This document shows positions 3,347 through 26,072 of a stretch of 32,993 bases of DNA, piece after piece. The first letter of the stretch is position 1. Each line of letters starts with the position of its first letter. The notes beneath the pieces are model-generated. The model saw nothing but the letters and a program-made list of their open reading frames with translations. It searched no databases and was not told the DNA's origin. Both the position numbers and the translations under genes were made by a program. Source of the stretch: a virus (lineage: Duplodnaviria; Heunggongvirae; Uroviricota; Caudoviricetes). The stretch is from IMG/VR virus record IMGVR_UViG_2585427793_000011; one strand, given 5' to 3'.

Positions 3347-3618
3347 GTATTCGTATTGAAATTGGCGAACGTTATGTCGTTACCAGTGACAGCTTTCAGT
3401 TTATTCTCCACGAGAAAAAGAGAGCTGAAAGCGGTAAAAACGCCGGTCAGGAATGGCTGGCGGTGGTTGGTTATTACCCGAAATTAAGCCAGCTTGTTTC
3501 CGGCCTGATGCATCACGATATTCTGACCGGAAGCGCAAAGTCTTTTGCTGATTTAAACGCGCAGGTTGAGCAACTCAGCAAGCGTTGTTCAGAGGCTTTT
3601 GGCTCATATGGCCGTTAA
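3343..3618 (+). CDS. Hypothetical early protein (P2 orf83 position)
   Basis: 91-aa ORF immediately upstream of A, overlapping its start. Confidence 0.5.
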   Translation: MSIRIEIGERYVVTSDSFQFILHEKKRAESGKNAGQEWLAVVGYYPKLSQLVSGLMHHDILTGSAKSFADLNAQVEQLSKRCSEAFGSYGR

Positions 3619-5887
3619 AGCCTCCGGGCGTTTTGTCCCTCCGTCAGCATTTGCCGCAGGCACCGGTGAGACGTTTACCGGTGCTTATGCATGGAACGCG
3701 CCACGCGAGGCCGTCGGGCGCGAAAGACCCCTTACACGTGACGAGATGCGTCAGGTGCAAGGTGTTTTATCCACGATTAATCGCCTGCCTTACTTTTTGC
3801 GCTCGCTGTTTACTTCACGCTATGACTACATCCGGCGCAATAAAAGCCCGGTGCACGGGTTTTATTTCCTCACATCCACTTTTCAGCGCCGTTTATGGCC
3901 GCGTATTGAGCGCGTGAATCAGCGCCATGAAATGAACACCGACGCGTCGTTGCTGTTTCTGGCAGAGCGTGACCATTATGCGCGTCTGCCGGGGATGAAT
4001 GACAAGGAGCTGAAAAAGTTTGCCGCCCGTATCTCATCGCAGCTTTTCATGATGTATGAGGAACTCTGCGATGCATGGGTTGATGCACATGGCGAGAAAG
4101 AATCGCTGTTTACAGATGAGGCGCAGGCACATCTGTATGGTCATGTTGCTGGCGCTGCACGTGCTTTCAATATTTCCCCTCTCTACTGGAAAAAATACCG
4201 TAAAGGACAGATGACCACGAGGCAGGCATATTCTGCCATTGCCCGTCTGTTTAACGATGAGTGGTGGACTCATCAGCTTAAAGGCCAGCGTATGCGCTGG
4301 CATGAGGCGTTACTGATTGCTGTCGGGGAGGTCAATAAAGACCGTTCTCCTTATGCCAGTAAACATGCCATTCGTGATGTGCGTGCACGCCGCCAGGCAA
4401 ATCTGGAATTTCTTAAATCGTGTGACCTCGAAAACAGGGAAACCGGCGAGCGCATCGACCTTATCAGTAAGGTGATGGGCAGTATTTCTAATCCTGAAAT
4501 TCGCCGGATGGAGCTGATGAACACCATCGCCGGTATTGAGCGTTACGCCGCCGCAGAGGGTGATGTGGGGATGTTTATCACTCTGACCGCGCCGTCAAAG
4601 TATCACCCGACACGTCAGGTCGGAAAAGGCGAAAGTAAAACCGTCCAGCTAAATCACGGCTGGAATGATGAGGCATTTAATCCAAAGGATGCGCAGCGTT
4701 ATCTCTGCCGCATCTGGAGCCTGATGCGCACGGCATTCAAGGATAATGATTTACAGGTCTACGGTTTGCGAGTCGTCGAGCCACACCACGACGGAACGCC
4801 GCACTGGCATATGATGCTTTTTTGTAATCCACGCCAGCGTAACCAGATTATTGAAATCATGCGTCGTTATGCGCTCAAAGAGGATGGCGACGAAAGAGGA
4901 GCCGCGCGAAACCGTTTTCAGGCAAAACACCTTAACCGGGGCGGTGCTGCGGGATATATCGCGAAATACATCTCAAAAAATATCGACGGCTATGCACTGG
5001 ATGGTCAGCTCGATAACGATACCGGCAGACCGCTGAAAGACACTGCTGCGGCTGTTACCGCATGGGCGTCAACGTGGCGTATCCCGCAATTTAAAACGGT
5101 TGGCCTGCCGACAATGGGGGCTTACCGTGAACTACGCAAACTGCCTCGCGGCGTCAGCATTGCTGATGAGTTTGACGAACGCGTCGAGGCTGCACGCGCC
5201 GCCGCAGACAGTGGTGATTTTGCGTTGTATATCAGCGCGCAGGGTGGGGCAAATGTCCCGCGCGATTGTCAGACTGTCAGGGTTGCCCGTAGCCCGTCGG
5301 ATGACGTTAACGAGTACGAGGAAGAAGTCGAGAGAGTGGTCGGCATTTACGCACCGCATCTCGGCGCGCGTCATATTCATATCACCAGAACCACGGACTG
5401 GCGCATTGTGCCGAAAGTGCCGGTCGTTGAGCCTTTGACTTTAAAAAGCGGCATCGCCGCGCCTCGGAGTCCTGTCAATAACTGTAGAAAGCTCTCCGGT
5501 GGTGATACTTCGTTACCGGCTCCCACACCTTCTGAGCACGCCGCAGCAGTGCTTAATCTGGTTGATGACGGTGTTATCGAATGGAATGACCCGGAGGTCG
5601 TGAGGGCGCTCAGGGGTGCATTAAAACACGGACTGAGAAGACCAAACCGCCAGCAAAGAAACGGAAGCCCGTTAAAACCGCATGAAATAGCGCCATCGGC
5701 CAGACTGACCCGGTCGGAACGAATGCAAATTACCCGTATCCGCGTTGACCTTGCTCAGAACGGTATCAGGCCGCAGCGATGGGAGCTTGAGGCGCTGGCG
5801 CGTGGCGCGACCGTAAATTATGACGGGAAAAAATTCGCTTATCCGGTCGCTGATGGATGGCCAGGGTTCACAACTGTAATAGATTGA
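3608..5887 (+). CDS. A: Replication initiation endonuclease A (rolling-circle, HUH-type)
   Basis: About 760 aa from ATG at 3608 (ORF track starts at TTG 3566); contains HWHMMLF (H-hydrophobic-H) motif; size and position as P2 gpA. Confidence 0.85.
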   Translation: MAVKASGRFVPPSAFAAGTGETFTGAYAWNAPREAVGRERPLTRDEMRQVQGVLSTINRLPYFLRSLFTSRYDYIRRNKSPVHGFYFLTSTFQRRLWPRIERVNQRHEMNTDASLLFLAERDHYARLPGMNDKELKKFAARISSQLFMMYEELCDAWVDAHGEKESLFTDEAQAHLYGHVAGAARAFNISPLYWKKYRKGQMTTRQAYSAIARLFNDEWWTHQLKGQRMRWHEALLIAVGEVNKDRSPYASKHAIRDVRARRQANLEFLKSCDLENRETGERIDLISKVMGSISNPEIRRMELMNTIAGIERYAAAEGDVGMFITLTAPSKYHPTRQVGKGESKTVQLNHGWNDEAFNPKDAQRYLCRIWSLMRTAFKDNDLQVYGLRVVEPHHDGTPHWHMMLFCNPRQRNQIIEIMRRYALKEDGDERGAARNRFQAKHLNRGGAAGYIAKYISKNIDGYALDGQLDNDTGRPLKDTAAAVTAWASTWRIPQFKTVGLPTMGAYRELRKLPRGVSIADEFDERVEAARAAADSGDFALYISAQGGANVPRDCQTVRVARSPSDDVNEYEEEVERVVGIYAPHLGARHIHITRTTDWRIVPKVPVVEPLTLKSGIAAPRSPVNNCRKLSGGDTSLPAPTPSEHAAAVLNLVDDGVIEWNDPEVVRALRGALKHGLRRPNRQQRNGSPLKPHEIAPSARLTRSERMQITRIRVDLAQNGIRPQRWELEALARGATVNYDGKKFAYPVADGWPGFTTVID

Positions 5888-5993
5888 AATAGTGTGAATA
5901 TCTAAGAGATAAAACTATATAAGGTGTGTATTAATACTGTGCTGGAGGAAAAGGTGAAAACCAGATGGCATGGCTACAATAATAAAACGATAA

Positions 5994-6020
5994 GCCTCAT
6001 TTTTAATGAGGCCGTTTTTA
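5994..6020. terminator. Bidirectional intrinsic terminator between A and the cargo operon
   Basis: Hairpin GCCTCAT-TTTTA-ATGAGGC followed by CGTTTTTATT and preceded by an A-rich run; lies between convergent gene ends (A stop 5887, cargo gene stop 6053). Confidence 0.55.
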
Positions 6021-6052: not shown

Positions 6053-6724
6053 TTAAAGGGCAAACCTTTCTATGGTTCGATACACCTTGTCAAAAATTTG
6101 CTCTGAAAGTGAAATGGACCCATTTGTGTTAATTTCTAATGACTCATAACCGGTAACGTCCTTAACATTAAGTTTAACTTTATCAATTGTAAAATTTGCA
6201 TTTTTGAAAATGTTTCTTATTTCCATAAGTGCGTCACTTGATGACTCAAGTTCCAGTATGCCGGATGTGTGTTTGCTAAACGTTAAGTCTTTTAATTTTG
6301 CCTTGTGCACTTGTATTTTTTCAAAGTGCGGGGTCAGGAAATAAATGAAGTCCTCAATTTTGATGTTGAGATTTGACACATTAAAATCAGAATGTGTTGA
6401 TTTAATTATGTTTGATATGAAGTTCTTAATGCTTCTGGGAGGCGACTCAATGATTAAGATGAAGTTTTTACCTTTTGTTGTGTAAAGCCAAAAGTTAAAT
6501 TGAATATATTTTAGCTGTGTATATTGAGTCTCGTTTCCATATGGATCAACGATTATCTCGTTGACCTCTACTTTCTCGATGTATCGAGATGATATTGCAT
6601 TTTCTTCATATGAGTTGATACTAAATCCCCAGCCTTTATCACTATCAAAAGGAGTGTTAATGATAGACTGATATAAACTATCAAGTCCAGCAGGGAAGTT
6701 GGCAGTAAACCATTTTGTTTTCAT
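6053..6724 (-). CDS. Hypothetical protein, third gene of AT-rich cargo operon
   Basis: 223-aa ORF with AAGGAG Shine-Dalgarno 7 nt upstream of ATG; low GC; no family recognised. Confidence 0.7.
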   Translation of the reverse strand: MKTKWFTANFPAGLDSLYQSIINTPFDSDKGWGFSINSYEENAISSRYIEKVEVNEIIVDPYGNETQYTQLKYIQFNFWLYTTKGKNFILIIESPPRSIKNFISNIIKSTHSDFNVSNLNIKIEDFIYFLTPHFEKIQVHKAKLKDLTFSKHTSGILELESSSDALMEIRNIFKNANFTIDKVKLNVKDVTGYESLEINTNGSISLSEQIFDKVYRTIERFAL

Positions 6725-6735
6725 AACAACTCCTT

Positions 6736-7848
6736 TTATTTATCAGTAACAACCTCAATTGTGTTGGAGGCGATAATACTGTTTGAAATTTCGCGAGCGG
6801 TTTTTTCAAGTGCTAATAATAGCAGTTTTTCCTTCTCTTTATCTACATTTTGACGATTTGCATATTCGTTTATATTTTTGTACTTATAAACACCGCGAAC
6901 GATATACGAGAATAACTTGCAATTATCTGGGTCGACAAATTGAGCCTCGAATTCATATTTGTCCGAGTCTTTATAAGTGTCAACAACAGAACTCCAAATG
7001 ATTTTGGTAATATAAAATCCTTTTCCTAACAACTCCTTAAACTCGAGAGAGTCAAGAACGCTGCGCCCTTTTAGTGAAGCTTTGGAGATATGATATCCTG
7101 TGTCAATAATTGTATCGTCATCATCAGAATCATCTTCATTTTCGTTAGACTTATTTGACTCAAGAATTGGATGCGTAACGTATACATCCGATACGTCAAT
7201 GCATTTGTAGTTAGGTATGCTTGAGATTAGTTGCTCAAAAAATTTGCTTCTTTCCGCTGGTGATTTAACAGTTTCGAGCGAAATCTCATCAAGACTGGCT
7301 GGATCCTCATTGTTGTCTTCTTTGATCTTCTCCACGAGGCGCTCGTTGAATTCCCTTGCTTTAGCATTTTGAGGGAAACGGGTGATAAATTCACCGCTTT
7401 CATTCATTTCAACTTGTATTTTGGCTTCACGTGATGAGGATTGGCGAAACTCGCTCATTTTGAAATCTAGTTTCACATATTTTATTGATACTTCAAAACC
7501 ATTCTCGGTGTAATTTATATTAGTTATATCGCCTTCTTTTTGAAGATCTTCACAAATAGATTTAATAGTATTTTCCATACTATTTTTATCTATATTTGTA
7601 TTAATAATGTTAATTGATACTTTTTCTCTCCGCCCAACAGAACCGAGTATGTTTGAAAGAAATTCAAAATCAGAATAGCCATGATAGTATCTGGAAAAAT
7701 CCAAAGCCAATGTTTTTCGTTTAGTCTCTTTGGATATAATCATTCCTCTTTTAAAAAAGAGACTTTTCATATCTTCATGAGTGACTTTAGTTTGATTCAA
7801 TGCGTCAAACATTGCCTTATCATTTACACTATATAATCCAATTTTCAT
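6736..7848 (-). CDS. Hypothetical acidic protein, second gene of AT-rich cargo operon
   Basis: 370 aa from ATG at 7848, which forms an ATGA overlap with the upstream gene stop (ORF track extends to TTG 7863); GGGAG upstream; contains NENEDDSDDDD acidic tract. Confidence 0.7.
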   Translation of the reverse strand: MKIGLYSVNDKAMFDALNQTKVTHEDMKSLFFKRGMIISKETKRKTLALDFSRYYHGYSDFEFLSNILGSVGRREKVSINIINTNIDKNSMENTIKSICEDLQKEGDITNINYTENGFEVSIKYVKLDFKMSEFRQSSSREAKIQVEMNESGEFITRFPQNAKAREFNERLVEKIKEDNNEDPASLDEISLETVKSPAERSKFFEQLISSIPNYKCIDVSDVYVTHPILESNKSNENEDDSDDDDTIIDTGYHISKASLKGRSVLDSLEFKELLGKGFYITKIIWSSVVDTYKDSDKYEFEAQFVDPDNCKLFSYIVRGVYKYKNINEYANRQNVDKEKEKLLLLALEKTAREISNSIIASNTIEVVTDK

Positions 7849-8909
7849 GCCTGTCGCTCCCAACCAATCTCTACCGAACTAAAACGAGGCTTTGTAAATT
7901 CTACCTGTTGAAAATCAATAGCATCTATTATCGTTTTTTTATGTTCATCGAAACCCCATTCTTGACAATAACTATCCTTTGCACGCATAAAAATACTGCG
8001 AACATCTTTATGTATGTTAGGGTTAACTATTCTAATTCTTATATTTTCATTGCCATCCAGTAATTGATATTTAGATAGTGTGTCCAGAATGTAAATAAAC
8101 TCTAGCTCGTTTTTTCCTTCGCCATTGTAATAAATAATGTAACCATGTTTAAATGTGGTTTCCCATTGTGATGTTTCTTCATTGCAATGTCTGACGTCAT
8201 TATGTTTTATAATAAGGAATGGGCCTGTCAATAATTCTACAGTTGCTGGAAGTTCTTCGGGCGAACCGCTTACTTTATGTAGTGAAAGGTCTGGGTAAAA
8301 GAATTGATATTTTTTACCGAGTGGAAACTCTCTTTTGTGGCTTAGTTGTGATAAATCGCAGATTATTGACTGCAGGTAGTTTATAGTTCTTGGTTCAATA
8401 ATGTGTATTTTTTGACCGGCCCTTACCGGTATATTGTCAAGATTGATACCTCTTTTCTTCTTATCAGTTTCAGTATTGTGAGACTGATAGAATACATCAT
8501 AAAAAGATTGGTCAAAGTCTCCGTCATGGTTGTATACAAAGAGCATGCCTCTGACTTCTGACGCACCACTTTTATAAGAATAACGCTCCTTCCATTCTTT
8601 ACAACCTTGAGCACAGTCAATAGAATTAGCCAGCGATACTAAAGCATTGCGCATTTTAGTTGCTGTAATTGAGCCTTTAATATAGCTTTTTAAATCAGTA
8701 TTTAAAAAAATGGTTCTATTCAAATAGGGATCTTTATAAGAAAATACAACATCAGTTGGATGTGTTCCGGCTAGTGTTTTATGTTGATCTTTTTTCATGC
8801 ATGGAAAGTTTTCATTGGTTGGACCAACGAGTTCCCACTTAAACCATTTGAATAGGTCTGAAGATATTTTTTCTGCCATTGCTGAAATATTTTGAGTTTC
8901 ACCTGACAT
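7845..8909 (-). CDS. Hypothetical protein, first gene of AT-rich cargo operon
   Basis: 354-aa ORF, AGGT 9 nt upstream of ATG, AT-rich promoter-like region upstream; no family recognised with confidence. Confidence 0.7.
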   Translation of the reverse strand: MSGETQNISAMAEKISSDLFKWFKWELVGPTNENFPCMKKDQHKTLAGTHPTDVVFSYKDPYLNRTIFLNTDLKSYIKGSITATKMRNALVSLANSIDCAQGCKEWKERYSYKSGASEVRGMLFVYNHDGDFDQSFYDVFYQSHNTETDKKKRGINLDNIPVRAGQKIHIIEPRTINYLQSIICDLSQLSHKREFPLGKKYQFFYPDLSLHKVSGSPEELPATVELLTGPFLIIKHNDVRHCNEETSQWETTFKHGYIIYYNGEGKNELEFIYILDTLSKYQLLDGNENIRIRIVNPNIHKDVRSIFMRAKDSYCQEWGFDEHKKTIIDAIDFQQVEFTKPRFSSVEIGWERQA

Positions 8910-9147
8910 GATAATTACCTATATATATTTTGTATAAATCCCTATGAGCCATAACTCTTATGAACCACATGTAACAACGTGGGGCATATTATGGCTAATC
9001 GATCTGTACCATAATTTCATCATTCTTGCATCATCTTGAATGAATTCGCATGCTTACGCCATATCCATATCAAAACATCAATGTCAACAATGGCGCGGAT
9101 TCGGCTAAATCATGCAACTGCATTAAAATCGCCCCATGAAGCGGGCG

Positions 9148-9166
9148 GGCGAGGCGGGGAAAGCAC
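9148..9166. other. cos site (cohesive-end sequence)
   Basis: GGCGAGGCGGGGAAAGCAC, matching my recollection of the P2 19-nt cohesive end, in the expected position upstream of Q. Confidence 0.7.
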
Positions 9167-9335: not shown

Positions 9336-10370
9336 TCAGCCGTTGTCAGTGTCCAGTGAGTAGTTTTTAAAGCGGATGACCTCCTGACCGAGCCAGCCGT
9401 TTATTTCCCGAATCCTGTCCTGTAACGGGATAAGCTCATTGCGGACAAAGACCTTTGCCACTTTCTCAATATCACCCAGCGACCCGACGTTCTCCGGCTT
9501 GCCGCCCATCAACTGAAAGGGGATGCGGTGCGCGTCCAGCAGGTCTGCGGCACTGGCTTTTTTGATATTAAAAAAATCGTCCTTCGTCGCCACTTCACTG
9601 AGCGGGATAATTTTAATGCCGTCAGCTTTCCCCTGCGGGGCATAGAGAAACAGGTTTTTAAAGTTGTTGCGGCCTTTCGACTTGACCATGTTTTCGCGGA
9701 GCATTTCGATATCGTTGCGATCCTGCACGGCATCGGTGACGTACATGATGTATCCGGCATGTGCGCCGTTTTCGTAATACTTGCGGCGGAACAGCGTGGC
9801 CGACTCATTCAGCCAGGCAGAGTTAAGGGCGCTGAGATATTCCGGCAGGCCGTACAGTTCCTGATTAATATCCGGCTCCAGCAGATGAAACACGGAGCCG
9901 GGCGCGAAAGGTGTCGGCTCGTTGAAGGACGGCACCCACCAGTAAACATCCTCCTCCACGCCACGGCGGGGATATTTTGCCGGTGAGGTTTCCAGTCTGA
10001 TGACCTTACCGGTGGTGCTGTAACGCTTTTCCAGAAACGCATTACCGAAAACCAGAAAATCCAGCACAAAGCGGCTGAAATCCTGCTGGGAAAGCCACGG
10101 ATGCGGGATAAATGTCGAGGCCAGAATATTACGTTTGACGTAAATCGGTGAGCTGTGATGCACGGCAGCACGCAGGCTTTTTGCCAGACCGGTAAAGCTG
10201 ACCGGCGGCTCATACCATCTGCCGTTACTGATGCACTCGACGTAATCCAGAATGTCACGGCGGTCGAGTACCGGCACCGGCTCACCAAAGGTGAATGCCT
10301 CCATTTTCGGGGCGCTGGCGGTCATTTTTTTTGCCGCAGGTTGCGGTGTTTTCCCTTTTTTCTTGCTCAT
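9336..10370 (-). CDS. Q: Portal (capsid) protein
   Basis: 344 aa, same length and position as P2 gpQ; one-nucleotide stop/start overlap with P. Confidence 0.9.
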   Translation of the reverse strand: MSKKKGKTPQPAAKKMTASAPKMEAFTFGEPVPVLDRRDILDYVECISNGRWYEPPVSFTGLAKSLRAAVHHSSPIYVKRNILASTFIPHPWLSQQDFSRFVLDFLVFGNAFLEKRYSTTGKVIRLETSPAKYPRRGVEEDVYWWVPSFNEPTPFAPGSVFHLLEPDINQELYGLPEYLSALNSAWLNESATLFRRKYYENGAHAGYIMYVTDAVQDRNDIEMLRENMVKSKGRNNFKNLFLYAPQGKADGIKIIPLSEVATKDDFFNIKKASAADLLDAHRIPFQLMGGKPENVGSLGDIEKVAKVFVRNELIPLQDRIREINGWLGQEVIRFKNYSLDTDNG

Positions 10371-18587: not shown

Positions 18588-19373
18588 TTATGAGTGATTT
18601 TTATTTGATGCTTTGTATTCTACAACCTTCTTATTGGCGTAAAGGAATTTTGTATATGACAGGAATATAACCAGACCTGAAATGAAATAGATGAGGGATA
18701 TTATTAATAATGCTTTTTTTTGGCTGTTATTATCTTTAATCTCCTGACTTAACCATTCGGAGTCCTCCTCGTTTAGCTGTAAGAGCTTATTGCAGGCGAT
18801 CTCAGGAAGTGTGTCTTTTATAAATACGTTTCGTAGCCTCTTGCAATCGGCAAGGCTATAAGTTTTATTGAATTCAACTGTTTTATTGTTGAAGGATAAA
18901 AGAACTTTGTCACTATAAACATAGTACATCATATTTTTATATGGTATGCCTATGGCATCTCTTACTATAGCGGATTGTTTGTTGTGTATATAACATGCGA
19001 GGAGAATGTAAAAAATACTGGCCAGAATTACAATTATTGTTTTAATTATGTGTGGTGGTTTTGTTATGTCACCCCAGATGCGAGTAAGGAAAAAATACGA
19101 TGTTTTTAGTTTTCCATCAATCAGTCCCTGCTGTATCATTCTCACATTTTCAATGCCTGATACATTGATTCCGTTAATTATTTTAAATAGTTGAATGTCG
19201 CGCCACTCGCGGTCAAGTCTTTTTAATTTTTTGTCTGAATATCCAAAATTGAAATAATGTGCAATAAGCCTCATAAGGTTACTTTTACCAAAGCTAAAAA
19301 ATGCTAATACTGCAAAGCTACAAAGGAAAAAAACGATTAGCCCCCACACATTAGTCACATTATAGCTGACCAT
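18588..19373 (-). CDS. Hypothetical membrane protein (P2 orf30 position cargo gene)
   Basis: 261-aa AT-rich ORF, AAGGAG upstream of ATG; three hydrophobic segments (N-terminal, central, C-terminal) consistent with TM helices. Confidence 0.7.
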   Translation of the reverse strand: MVSYNVTNVWGLIVFFLCSFAVLAFFSFGKSNLMRLIAHYFNFGYSDKKLKRLDREWRDIQLFKIINGINVSGIENVRMIQQGLIDGKLKTSYFFLTRIWGDITKPPHIIKTIIVILASIFYILLACYIHNKQSAIVRDAIGIPYKNMMYYVYSDKVLLSFNNKTVEFNKTYSLADCKRLRNVFIKDTLPEIACNKLLQLNEEDSEWLSQEIKDNNSQKKALLIISLIYFISGLVIFLSYTKFLYANKKVVEYKASNKNHS

Positions 19374-24210: not shown

Positions 24211-24738
24211 ATGCAGCATTTAAAAAATATTACTGCGGGTAATCCCAAAACTGTTGCCCAATATCAACTGACAAAAAATTTTGATGTTGTCTGGTTATGG
24301 TCTGAAGACGGAAAAAACTGGTATGAGGAAGTAAGTAATTTTCAGGAAGACACGATAAAGATTGTTTACGACGAGAATAATATAATTGTCGGCATCACCA
24401 GAGATGCTTCAACGCTTAACCCTGAAGGTTTTAGCGTTGTCGAGGTTCCTGATATTACCGCCAACCGACGTGCTGATGACTCAGGTAAATGGATGTTTAA
24501 GGATGGTGCCGTGATTAAGCGGATTTATACGGCAGACGAACAGCATCAACTGGCAGAATCACAAAAGGCAACTTTACTTTCCGAAGCTGAATCCGTGATT
24601 TTGCTGCTGGAGCGCGCTGTCAGGCTGAATATGGCAACAGAGGAGGAACGCAGCCGACTGGAAGCATGGGAACGCTACAGTGTTCTGGTCAGTCGTGTGG
24701 ATCCTGCAAATCCTGAATGGCCGGAAATGCCGCAGTAA
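24211..24738 (+). CDS. G: Tail fibre assembly chaperone
   Basis: 175 aa, P2 gpG length; immediately downstream of H. Confidence 0.85.
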
Positions 24739-24989: not shown

Positions 24990-26072
24990 CTAATTATTTT
25001 GGCAAGTGCTGTCAGCGAGCAGAGAAAAATCACTATTTTCAATTGCGTTCACAAGTTTTGCAATATCATGATTTTTTTCATAAAAGATATATAACGCCGC
25101 ATACAGATTCATTTCGGGTTCAATCTTTGGAAATGACACGCTGATCATACGTTCATTTTTGATATATGCATCATCACCCTTATAGTACATTCCAACATAA
25201 TTGTCCCATCGTTCAATAAGACTCATCTCGAACAAATCATCAAGGTCTTTTGAAAAAGATTGATAGTTTGTATCGTCAATCATTAGTGGCCCGAAAAGTT
25301 GCTTTTCAGGAAACTCGATTTTCGTGCTTGTACTCTTCGGTATATTTATCTCACTGATAATTTTGCTTAAAAGATTTCTAGCAGATAAAGTGCATTGACG
25401 CAGTCTATTTTTAAAAAGTTCTAGAAATTCATATACGATCTGCTCACCTTCGTCAACATCATCAAACCATTCATTAGTATGAATTAACGCGTTGAAAAGA
25501 CTCAAGTCAAAGGGGATCGGCTTGTTTTTTGATACACAATACCCCTGATTGAAAGCAACGTCCCCAGGAGAGAAATAATCCGAGTATTCTTTCCGGGCAA
25601 GGGTCAAAAAATCACGCTGAAATTCTAAAGTTTGTCCCATTACCTTTTCGACTAGGTCGTACAATGTGAAATATTTGCACTGAAAATCGTCAGGGTGTTC
25701 ACGTACGTTATCAGGTAGGCGTTCAGCCGTGAGGACGAAAAACCAAATCTCGTCAAACTTACCCTTTAACTTCTCATTGTTTCGAAGTTTGTCTAATGTT
25801 TTCTGATACTTAACCTTTCTTGCAGTGGCAGTCATTTGCAAACCTAAGCGCTTTCCCGGTTGCACATAGTCGAGACCAGGGTAGTTTTGGGATATCCTAT
25901 TCATATCCTCAAACTGCTCTCCCCAGGCATGATTGATTAGAGGCAATAGCGAACTCTCTTGGGCTGTAGAAAGATCATTTAAATTGCTGCTGGTTTGCAT
26001 CTTGATTTGAGTAGCAAGTTTCGTTGCAAAGCTAGTTAATTCTTCCCTGTTTTTCATTTGCTCTGGTTTCAA
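24990..26072 (-). CDS. Hypothetical protein (Z/fun-locus cargo gene, candidate defence/abortive-infection protein)
   Basis: 355-360-aa AT-rich ORF counter-oriented to the flanking tail genes; start either TTG at 26072 (GGAG upstream) or ATG at 26057. Confidence 0.7.
   Translation of the reverse strand: MKPEQMKNREELTSFATKLATQIKMQTSSNLNDLSTAQESSLLPLINHAWGEQFEDMNRISQNYPGLDYVQPGKRLGLQMTATARKVKYQKTLDKLRNNEKLKGKFDEIWFFVLTAERLPDNVREHPDDFQCKYFTLYDLVEKVMGQTLEFQRDFLTLARKEYSDYFSPGDVAFNQGYCVSKNKPIPFDLSLFNALIHTNEWFDDVDEGEQIVYEFLELFKNRLRQCTLSARNLLSKIISEINIPKSTSTKIEFPEKQLFGPLMIDDTNYQSFSKDLDDLFEMSLIERWDNYVGMYYKGDDAYIKNERMISVSFPKIEPEMNLYAALYIFYEKNHDIAKLVNAIENSDFSLLADSTCQNN

Follow-up and report, generated by a model that had tools for sequence, protein, structure and literature searches.

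The acidic-loop gene of a P2-like prophage hotspot belongs to a divergent 3HP anti-phage system and may encode a DNA-sensing scaffold for a GAPS4a-type nuclease

The DNA analysed here, called the window throughout, is the whole 32,993-nt stretch recorded in IMG/VR as IMGVR_UViG_2585427793_000011. It is a P2-like prophage with terminase, capsid and tail genes. Its gene at 6736-7848 on the minus strand encodes a 370-aa protein with a poly-acidic tract. Judged by profile matches, this gene is Hp2, the middle subunit of the 3HP (Rst_3HP) anti-phage system, and belongs to a divergent sub-lineage of it. We put at roughly 55% the probability that Hp2, carried as low-GC cargo in the prophage hotspot, serves as a DNA-sensing scaffold for the neighbouring protein Hp1, with its acidic loop acting as a gate. 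An earlier note on this DNA had left the role of the protein open; it missed both the catalogued anti-phage operon and the PD-(D/E)xK nuclease predicted for its first gene. The link between Hp1 and GAPS4a, the remote homology between Hp2 and GAPS4b, and an acidic loop conserved in composition are new in this analysis.

The cassette consists of three co-directional, tightly packed minus-strand open reading frames (ORFs), of which Hp2 is the second. The Hp1 and Hp2 genes overlap in an ATGA junction, and the Hp3 start lies 12 nt past the Hp2 stop with AGGAG in front of it. The ORF that the earlier note had given as the second operon gene is confirmed, running from an ATG at 7848 to a TAA stop at 6736-6738. 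RefSeq calls the same ORF (WP_001398851) in a 99.8% identical E. coli cassette. An alternative TTG start at 7863, giving a protein of 375 aa, was rejected in favour of the ATG because M1 is invariant in the family alignment and RefSeq agrees. The three genes and the parts of Hp2 are located as follows.

7845-8909, minus strand: Hp1, 354 aa, predicted effector, putative GAPS4a-type PD-(D/E)xK nuclease
6736-7848, minus strand: Hp2, 370 aa, GAPS4b-related protein of predicted RdgC fold, predicted scaffold and DNA sensor
7645-7821, minus strand: N-terminal four-helix domain of the Hp2 model, aa 10-68, with helices at 10-17, 24-32, 44-52 and 58-68
7099-7167, minus strand: acidic, disordered loop of Hp2, aa 228-250, with 10 D/E and 1 K/R; predicted local distance difference test (pLDDT) score below 50 at aa 229-247
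6763-7620, minus strand: predicted RdgC-like body of Hp2, aa 77-362, two alpha/beta modules with a long C-terminal helix at the end
6053-6724, minus strand: Hp3, 223 aa, second protein of predicted RdgC fold

All three proteins match the corresponding PADLOC models, each near full length (Hp1, 1.7e-63; Hp2, 3.6e-37; Hp3, 6e-8). The lengths of these models (333, 359 and 227) are those of the three proteins encoded by pFR109 from E. coli E1114. The pFR109 insert was labelled 'hp + hp + hp' and was cloned from the P2 hotspot of that strain (Rousset et al. 2022, Cell Host Microbe). The E1114 three-gene system protects against P1 (PMC9122126). Near-identical counterparts of the window proteins (WP_024160514, WP_001398851 and WP_032238998) appear in Table S5A of the same paper as 'hypothetical + hypothetical + hypothetical'. 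Membership of the window cassette in 3HP follows from the profile matches, the gene order and the hotspot position. The window and E1114 systems share three co-directional genes of matching sizes, the same P2 hotspot, and an Hp2 acidic loop at the same position, which reads TDASEDEDKEETID in E1114. Window Hp1, Hp2 and Hp3 share only 36%, 31% and 19% amino acid identity with the E1114 proteins (BLASTP 2e-67, 2e-39 and 1e-10), so the window system is a divergent member with putative anti-phage activity.

The 3HP trio is widespread. A first search retrieved 63 Hp2 relatives at 90% clustering, and an exhaustive profile search retrieved 618 representative clusters at 50% identity, 524 of them at E≤1e-10. 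The Hp1-Hp2-Hp3 order is kept, with the genes overlapping or abutting, in all 34 informative loci, which come from Gamma-, Beta- and Alphaproteobacteria and one Balneola metagenome-assembled genome. By this gene-order evidence, Hp1, Hp2 and Hp3 are an obligate unit. The genomic context of the trio varies: besides the P2 prophage described here, it is found in Metapseudomonas within an integrase islet and in Vibrio parahaemolyticus on a conjugative element. Deposited records of Klebsiella, Pseudomonas and Vibrio phages contain relatives as well. A frameshift or an assembly error has broken Hp2 into two ORFs in one metagenome bin (L013:1670-2773). This bin is labelled Lactobacillales, an assignment that seems doubtful given that the protein-level identity to the enterobacterial type is about 65%.

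3HP is listed in DefenseFinder and PADLOC and has been counted in many genome censuses; the papers naming Rst_3HP in the literature found were censuses only. A 2024 review stated that 3HP cannot be assigned to a known domain family, and the literature searched holds no published mechanism for any 3HP and no link of 3HP to GAPS4 or RdgC. Domain databases returned little for these proteins. All three fall into PHROGs families of 'unknown function', PDB sequence searches with each gave no match, and Pfam and NCBIfam searches gave sub-threshold noise only, in a Pfam copy without PF26115 and PF26110. This Pfam result is uninformative for those two families because the copy used misses Hp1 homologues that carry precomputed matches.

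Hp1 is predicted to be a GAPS4a-type PD-(D/E)xK nuclease. RefSeq names it 'PD-(D/E)XK nuclease domain-containing protein', and it contains the conserved motif H50-P51-x-D53 ... N70-T71-D72-L73-K74-S75-Y76. PF26115 (PDDEXK_GAPS4) is precomputed on Hp1 homologues in three of the loci (L002, L004 and L006). For comparison with GAPS4, the GAPS4a and GAPS4b proteins of E. coli RiKo were transcribed from the AlphaFold 3 model file of a preprint, and a 99% match to 'GapS4b family protein' entries validates the transcription. The Hp1 profile aligned with GAPS4a(RiKo) at an hhalign probability of 94.2% (E 1.1e-7, 202 columns), with 0.2% for the reversed control. In this alignment, H50-P-x-D53 lies over the GAPS4a HGxD motif and N-T-D72-L-K74 over S-x-K, and D53 of Hp1 pairs with D49 of GAPS4a(RiKo), a residue needed for defence (bioRxiv 10.1101/2025.09.07.674715). 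Beyond the nuclease core, the C-terminal two thirds of Hp1 (aa 128-354) have no assigned domain and contain many invariant residues, such as H169, P173, Y205-P206, H211-K212, E225, Y260-Y261-N262 and W318.

The profile comparisons indicate that Hp2 is a remote homologue of GAPS4b rather than a member of that family by the Pfam definition. A broad 201-sequence Hp2 profile aligned with the GAPS4b profile at 96.0% (hhalign, E 4.9e-9) over 251 colinear columns, spanning residues 5-268 of Hp2 and 5-286 of GAPS4b. Reversed and column-shuffled controls gave at most 0.2%, and removal of the acidic loop left the value at 95.5%. Hp2 compared with a single GAPS4b sequence gave a non-significant 0.2%. The four-helix domain of Hp2 is colinear with the GAPS4b N-terminus in the profile alignments.

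In GAPS4, a two-gene system, GAPS4a is a PD-(D/E)xK nuclease carrying its HGxD-SxK motif near the N-terminus, and GAPS4b assembles into a ring-like dimer. The a2b2 complex is a non-selective DNase set off by DNA breaks or linear DNA, and the AlphaFold 3 model places GAPS4a on the globular, alpha-helical domain of GAPS4b (bioRxiv 10.1101/2025.09.07.674715). The first gene of 3HP, like that of GAPS4, encodes a nuclease of the PDDEXK_GAPS4 family whose H-x-x-D ... x-K active site is N-terminal, and the second gene encodes a partner of about 370-385 aa with an apparently homologous N-terminal helical domain and body. In both systems the first two genes overlap and are carried on mobile elements, including a conjugative element. 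The V. parahaemolyticus 3HP trio (L004:6937-9761) lies among TraN/TraU/TrbC genes and a canonical Enterobacteriaceae GAPS4 pair (L037:3085-5158) among TraC/TraU genes; the two systems thus occupy comparable cargo sites in conjugative elements, as they do in prophages.

The differences between the systems are also clear. GAPS4 has two genes or a single fused gene, and no third gene was found in the canonical GAPS4 loci examined, whereas 3HP has an obligate third gene, Hp3, of predicted RdgC fold. Because all 34 informative loci have Hp3 after Hp2, the window cassette is not a two-gene GAPS4 system. Hp1 carries a canonical D-L-K in place of the S-x-K of GAPS4a, and Hp2 falls below Pfam GAPS4b_N. 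The strongly acidic loop is found in Hp2 and not in GAPS4b, and the reported phage range covers many phages for GAPS4 and P1 only for 3HP.

Structure prediction points to RdgC. The Hp2 model has a pLDDT of 83.4 and a predicted template modelling score of 0.73. Phage RdgC proteins were the top Foldseek matches of this model in BFVD, and RdgC was the only PDB structural match covering both modules, with 207 aligned residues. In the models, Hp2 and Hp3 both appear RdgC-like, with the centre and base domains of the RdgC fold. A search for RdgC family membership by sequence gave no Pfam match at E≤1 beyond sub-threshold noise and no PDB sequence match. The Hp2 family has 13 conserved basic positions. 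No meaningful profile similarity was detected between Hp2 and Hp3, so the shared fold is treated as a structural resemblance only and not as evidence of paralogy. RdgC (PDB 2OWL) is a recombination-associated, ring-shaped dimer that binds double-stranded DNA through a basic 30-angstrom hole, despite being net negative as a protein; a ring form of Hp2 would follow by analogy. Two further RdgC-like cases resemble Hp2 in structure only. Lambda RexA, of the phage exclusion system RexAB, is RdgC-like, and its partner RexB is a membrane protein, not a nuclease. Iml3-Chl4 and CENP-L-N are eukaryotic kinetochore heterodimers, and Iml3-Chl4 is built from two RdgC-like folds and contacts DNA.

The earlier note had called Hp2 a highly acidic protein. 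Its isoelectric point (pI) is 5.13 rather than near neutral, its net charge is -12.1, and D+E make up 17.6% of residues against 14.3% for K+R. The description nevertheless overstates the case, since about 9 of the 12 net negative charges lie in one loop. Without these 23 residues, Hp2 has a pI of 6.0 and a net charge of -3.1, so its acidity is local and not a property of the whole protein. The poly-acidic tract itself was read correctly as NENEDDSDDDDTIID, at aa 235-249 (window 7102-7146). A 15-residue window with a net charge of -9 or below occurred in 233 of 20,000 shuffles of Hp2 (about 1.2%). Hp2 contains no Walker A or B motif and no enzyme motif, as the note had said, and it shows no homology to a characterised enzyme family.

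Within the base-domain-like module, the second of the two, the loop is flanked by the conserved strand DVxDVYVxHP on one side and the conserved motif HI(S/T)KASLKG on the other. It directly adjoins, on the upstream side, a basic stretch that reads HISKASLKGR in Hp2. A survey of 201 Hp2 relatives, 21-82% identical to the window protein, gave a median loop length of 22 residues with 9 D/E and 1 K/R. The net charge is -5 or below in 167 and -3 or below in 188 of these relatives. Loop sequence is not conserved, nor is loop length, which spans 5-44 residues. The corresponding segment of GAPS4b has a much lower acidity (median 4 D/E and 2 K/R). Since the composition is kept without sequence conservation in a disordered segment beside a conserved basic motif, a charge-dependent function is suggested, and the loop is probably regulatory.

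These observations can be combined in a mechanism in which Hp1 is a GAPS4a-type nuclease, Hp2 a remote GAPS4b homologue with a four-helix N-terminal domain and an RdgC-like two-module body, and Hp3 a second RdgC-like protein, as the profiles and models suggest. Hp2, probably together with Hp3, would form a DNA-binding ring or clamp, by analogy with GAPS4 and with the dimers RdgC and Iml3-Chl4, the latter two of which encircle or cradle DNA. The N-terminal domain of Hp2 would hold Hp1; residues 10-68 are the likely docking site because they match the N-terminal domain of GAPS4b. The ring may recognise phage-derived DNA ends or aberrant DNA and then license DNA degradation by Hp1. The most speculative step concerns the acidic loop, which would be regulatory and would most likely serve as a polyanionic plug or gate within the molecule. 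Until displaced by a genuine DNA substrate, the plug would prevent the DNA-binding surface, or the nuclease, from engaging host DNA. A stronger and rather unlikely version treats 3HP as a three-component elaboration of GAPS4, in which a heteromeric, DNA-encircling Hp2-Hp3 ring senses free ends topologically and licenses Hp1, and the Hp2 loop is a DNA-mimic plug against autoimmunity.

Several points weigh against a scaffold that senses DNA and is gated by the loop. The Hp2 and Hp3 structures are AlphaFold2 monomer predictions, and where the loop lies with respect to any surface that binds DNA is deduced from their topology. In about 13 of the 201 relatives the loop bears little net charge, and some lineages can therefore do without strong acidity. 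The narrow Hp2 profile reached only 12.9% against GAPS4b, none of the 63 Hp2 relatives carries a precomputed match to PF26110 (GAPS4b_N), and about 100 C-terminal residues of Hp2 do not align to GAPS4b. Experimental backing comes from a relative only 19-36% identical, which protected against one of eight phages (PMC9122126). The 3HP trigger may also differ from that of GAPS4, because a range limited to P1 stands against the broad range of GAPS4.

The nearest competitor leaves Hp2 as a 3HP and GAPS4b-like protein and takes the tract as a passive spacer that lends flexibility and solubility and regulates nothing. We regard it as unlikely, while giving it more weight than any other alternative. 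The earlier note had offered a flexible linker or a DNA mimic, and the linker half of that proposal agrees with the low pLDDT, the variable length and the lack of positional conservation. A surface loop whose removal leaves the homology signal unaffected, and which in some relatives has almost no acidic residues, would suit a spacer. If the spacer were neutral, an acidic bias should not have persisted in 167 of 201 relatives as divergent as these (median 9 D/E against 1 K/R), the homologous GAPS4b segment has no such bias, and two of the best-conserved motifs of Hp2 flank the loop. The other half of the proposal, if applied to the whole protein, would make Hp2 an anti-restriction protein of the Ocr or ArdA type, directed against host or competitor nucleases. 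Its pI, its poly-D/E tract and its phage-borne gene are in line with this. Ocr and ArdA types are globally very acidic with a DNA-like surface. Hp2 is near neutral outside the loop (pI 6.0, charge -3), and its predicted RdgC-like fold with conserved basic residues is that of a DNA binder rather than a DNA-shaped acidic surface, so a whole-protein mimic cannot apply. Hp2 is also translationally coupled to the nuclease gene and always occurs in the Hp1-Hp2-Hp3 trio, and the homologous trio gave defence, not anti-defence (PMC9122126). Of all the alternatives, this is the least probable. The DNA-mimic idea survives only for the loop itself, as a hypothetical intramolecular mimic or plug.

The loop could instead be a bait or sensor surface for a basic DNA-binding protein of the phage, such as a recombinase, an SSB-like protein or an internal head protein, so that a protein and not DNA ends would be the trigger. 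To a DNA-binding protein, a polyanionic loop can resemble nucleic acid, and a loop whose sequence and length vary fast is what an arms-race interface would be expected to look like. Protection against P1 only among eight phages fits a specific protein trigger better than generic end sensing. Against this bait surface, the related GAPS4 is reported to respond to DNA breaks or linear DNA rather than to a protein, and Hp2, from its RdgC fold and conserved basic positions, would seem to contact DNA directly; we find the bait doubtful, more so than the spacer. Finally, the likeness to GAPS4b and RdgC might be convergent or spurious, and Hp2 might be some other adaptor, for example one binding protein or RNA through KA1- or TBP-like modules, with a mechanism unrelated to DNA sensing. 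Such modules are widespread and have varied ligands, the Foldseek template modelling scores to phage RdgC are low (0.34-0.38), and the narrow-profile value and the missing PF26110 and Pfam RdgC matches fit this account as well. The broad-profile result is strong with clean controls, Hp1 maps independently to the GAPS4a family, and gene order and protein sizes match GAPS4a and GAPS4b. Together with RdgC being the only PDB match to span both modules, these findings make a spurious likeness very improbable, if slightly less so than a whole-protein mimic.

As a feature of the window, the cassette is largely unremarkable, being a catalogued defence system in a prophage hotspot where one would be expected. 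The added value is a mechanistic frame, still unproven, for an orphan system, built from the GAPS4 relationship, the two predicted RdgC folds and the conserved acidic loop. The relationship to GAPS4a and GAPS4b and the predicted RdgC folds of both 'hypothetical' partners give 3HP a concrete and falsifiable mechanism. 3HP and GAPS4 may be grouped as one family with two-gene and three-gene forms, and the acidic loop may offer a simple handle on how a non-selective nuclease is kept off the host chromosome. If true, the loop plug would amount to a form of autoinhibition that has not been described for GAPS4, Shedu or Hachiman.

The cassette occupies the cos-proximal hotspot of the P2-like prophage, between gpA and cos/gpQ. 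In P2-like phages, this hotspot is the region between gpA and gpQ beside cos (PMC9122126). The surrounding features of the window are as follows.

1-996: integrase
1483-1854: cox
3566-5887, plus strand: gpA replication endonuclease, one flank of the hotspot, from the RefSeq annotation of a 99.8% identical locus
5993-6013, minus strand: terminator-like hairpin, bidirectional, closing the operon just after Hp3; a pattern match from a consensus scan, with a 9-pair stem followed by a T-rich tail
8910-9147, minus strand: intergenic region from cos to Hp1, presumed from gene layout to hold the operon promoter
9148-9166, plus strand: presumed P2 cos cohesive-end sequence, one exact match against 0 expected
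9336-10370, minus strand: gpQ portal protein, the other flank of the hotspot, from RefSeq annotation

The sequence at 9148-9166 is GGCGAGGCGGGGAAAGCAC, which we take to be the P2 cos, and this position with the gpA and gpQ flanks places the cassette in the hotspot. GC content is about 0.53 in gpA and falls to 0.33-0.35 in the cassette; over the 3.3-kb block between gpA and gpQ it is 0.33-0.35, against 0.50-0.57 in the flanks. The 99.8% identical cassette is present in 10 of 5,426 complete E. coli genomes and the flanks in 2,157. The hairpin at 5993-6013 scores as a terminator on both strands and sits between the convergent gpA and Hp3 genes, and it may therefore terminate both transcripts. One sigma-70-like match was found at 8936-8908, which is weak as promoter evidence.

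Two other minus-strand ORFs stand out in the window. One, of 261 aa at 18588-19373, lies in a GC dip (about 0.46) within an otherwise plus-strand late block; it has no Pfam or PADLOC match and could be a further moron. The other, at 24990-26072 (GC about 0.39-0.42), is a second low-GC cargo gene, of 360 aa. It has the tail-fibre assembly gene (24211-24738) on one side and further tail genes on the other, where P2 carries its Z/fun locus, and it matches Pfam SMEK_N (1.6e-19) and the N-terminal part of the PADLOC model Aga_REase-PNTD1-PNTD2 (4e-18). Judged by these matches, it is probably another conflict or defence gene.

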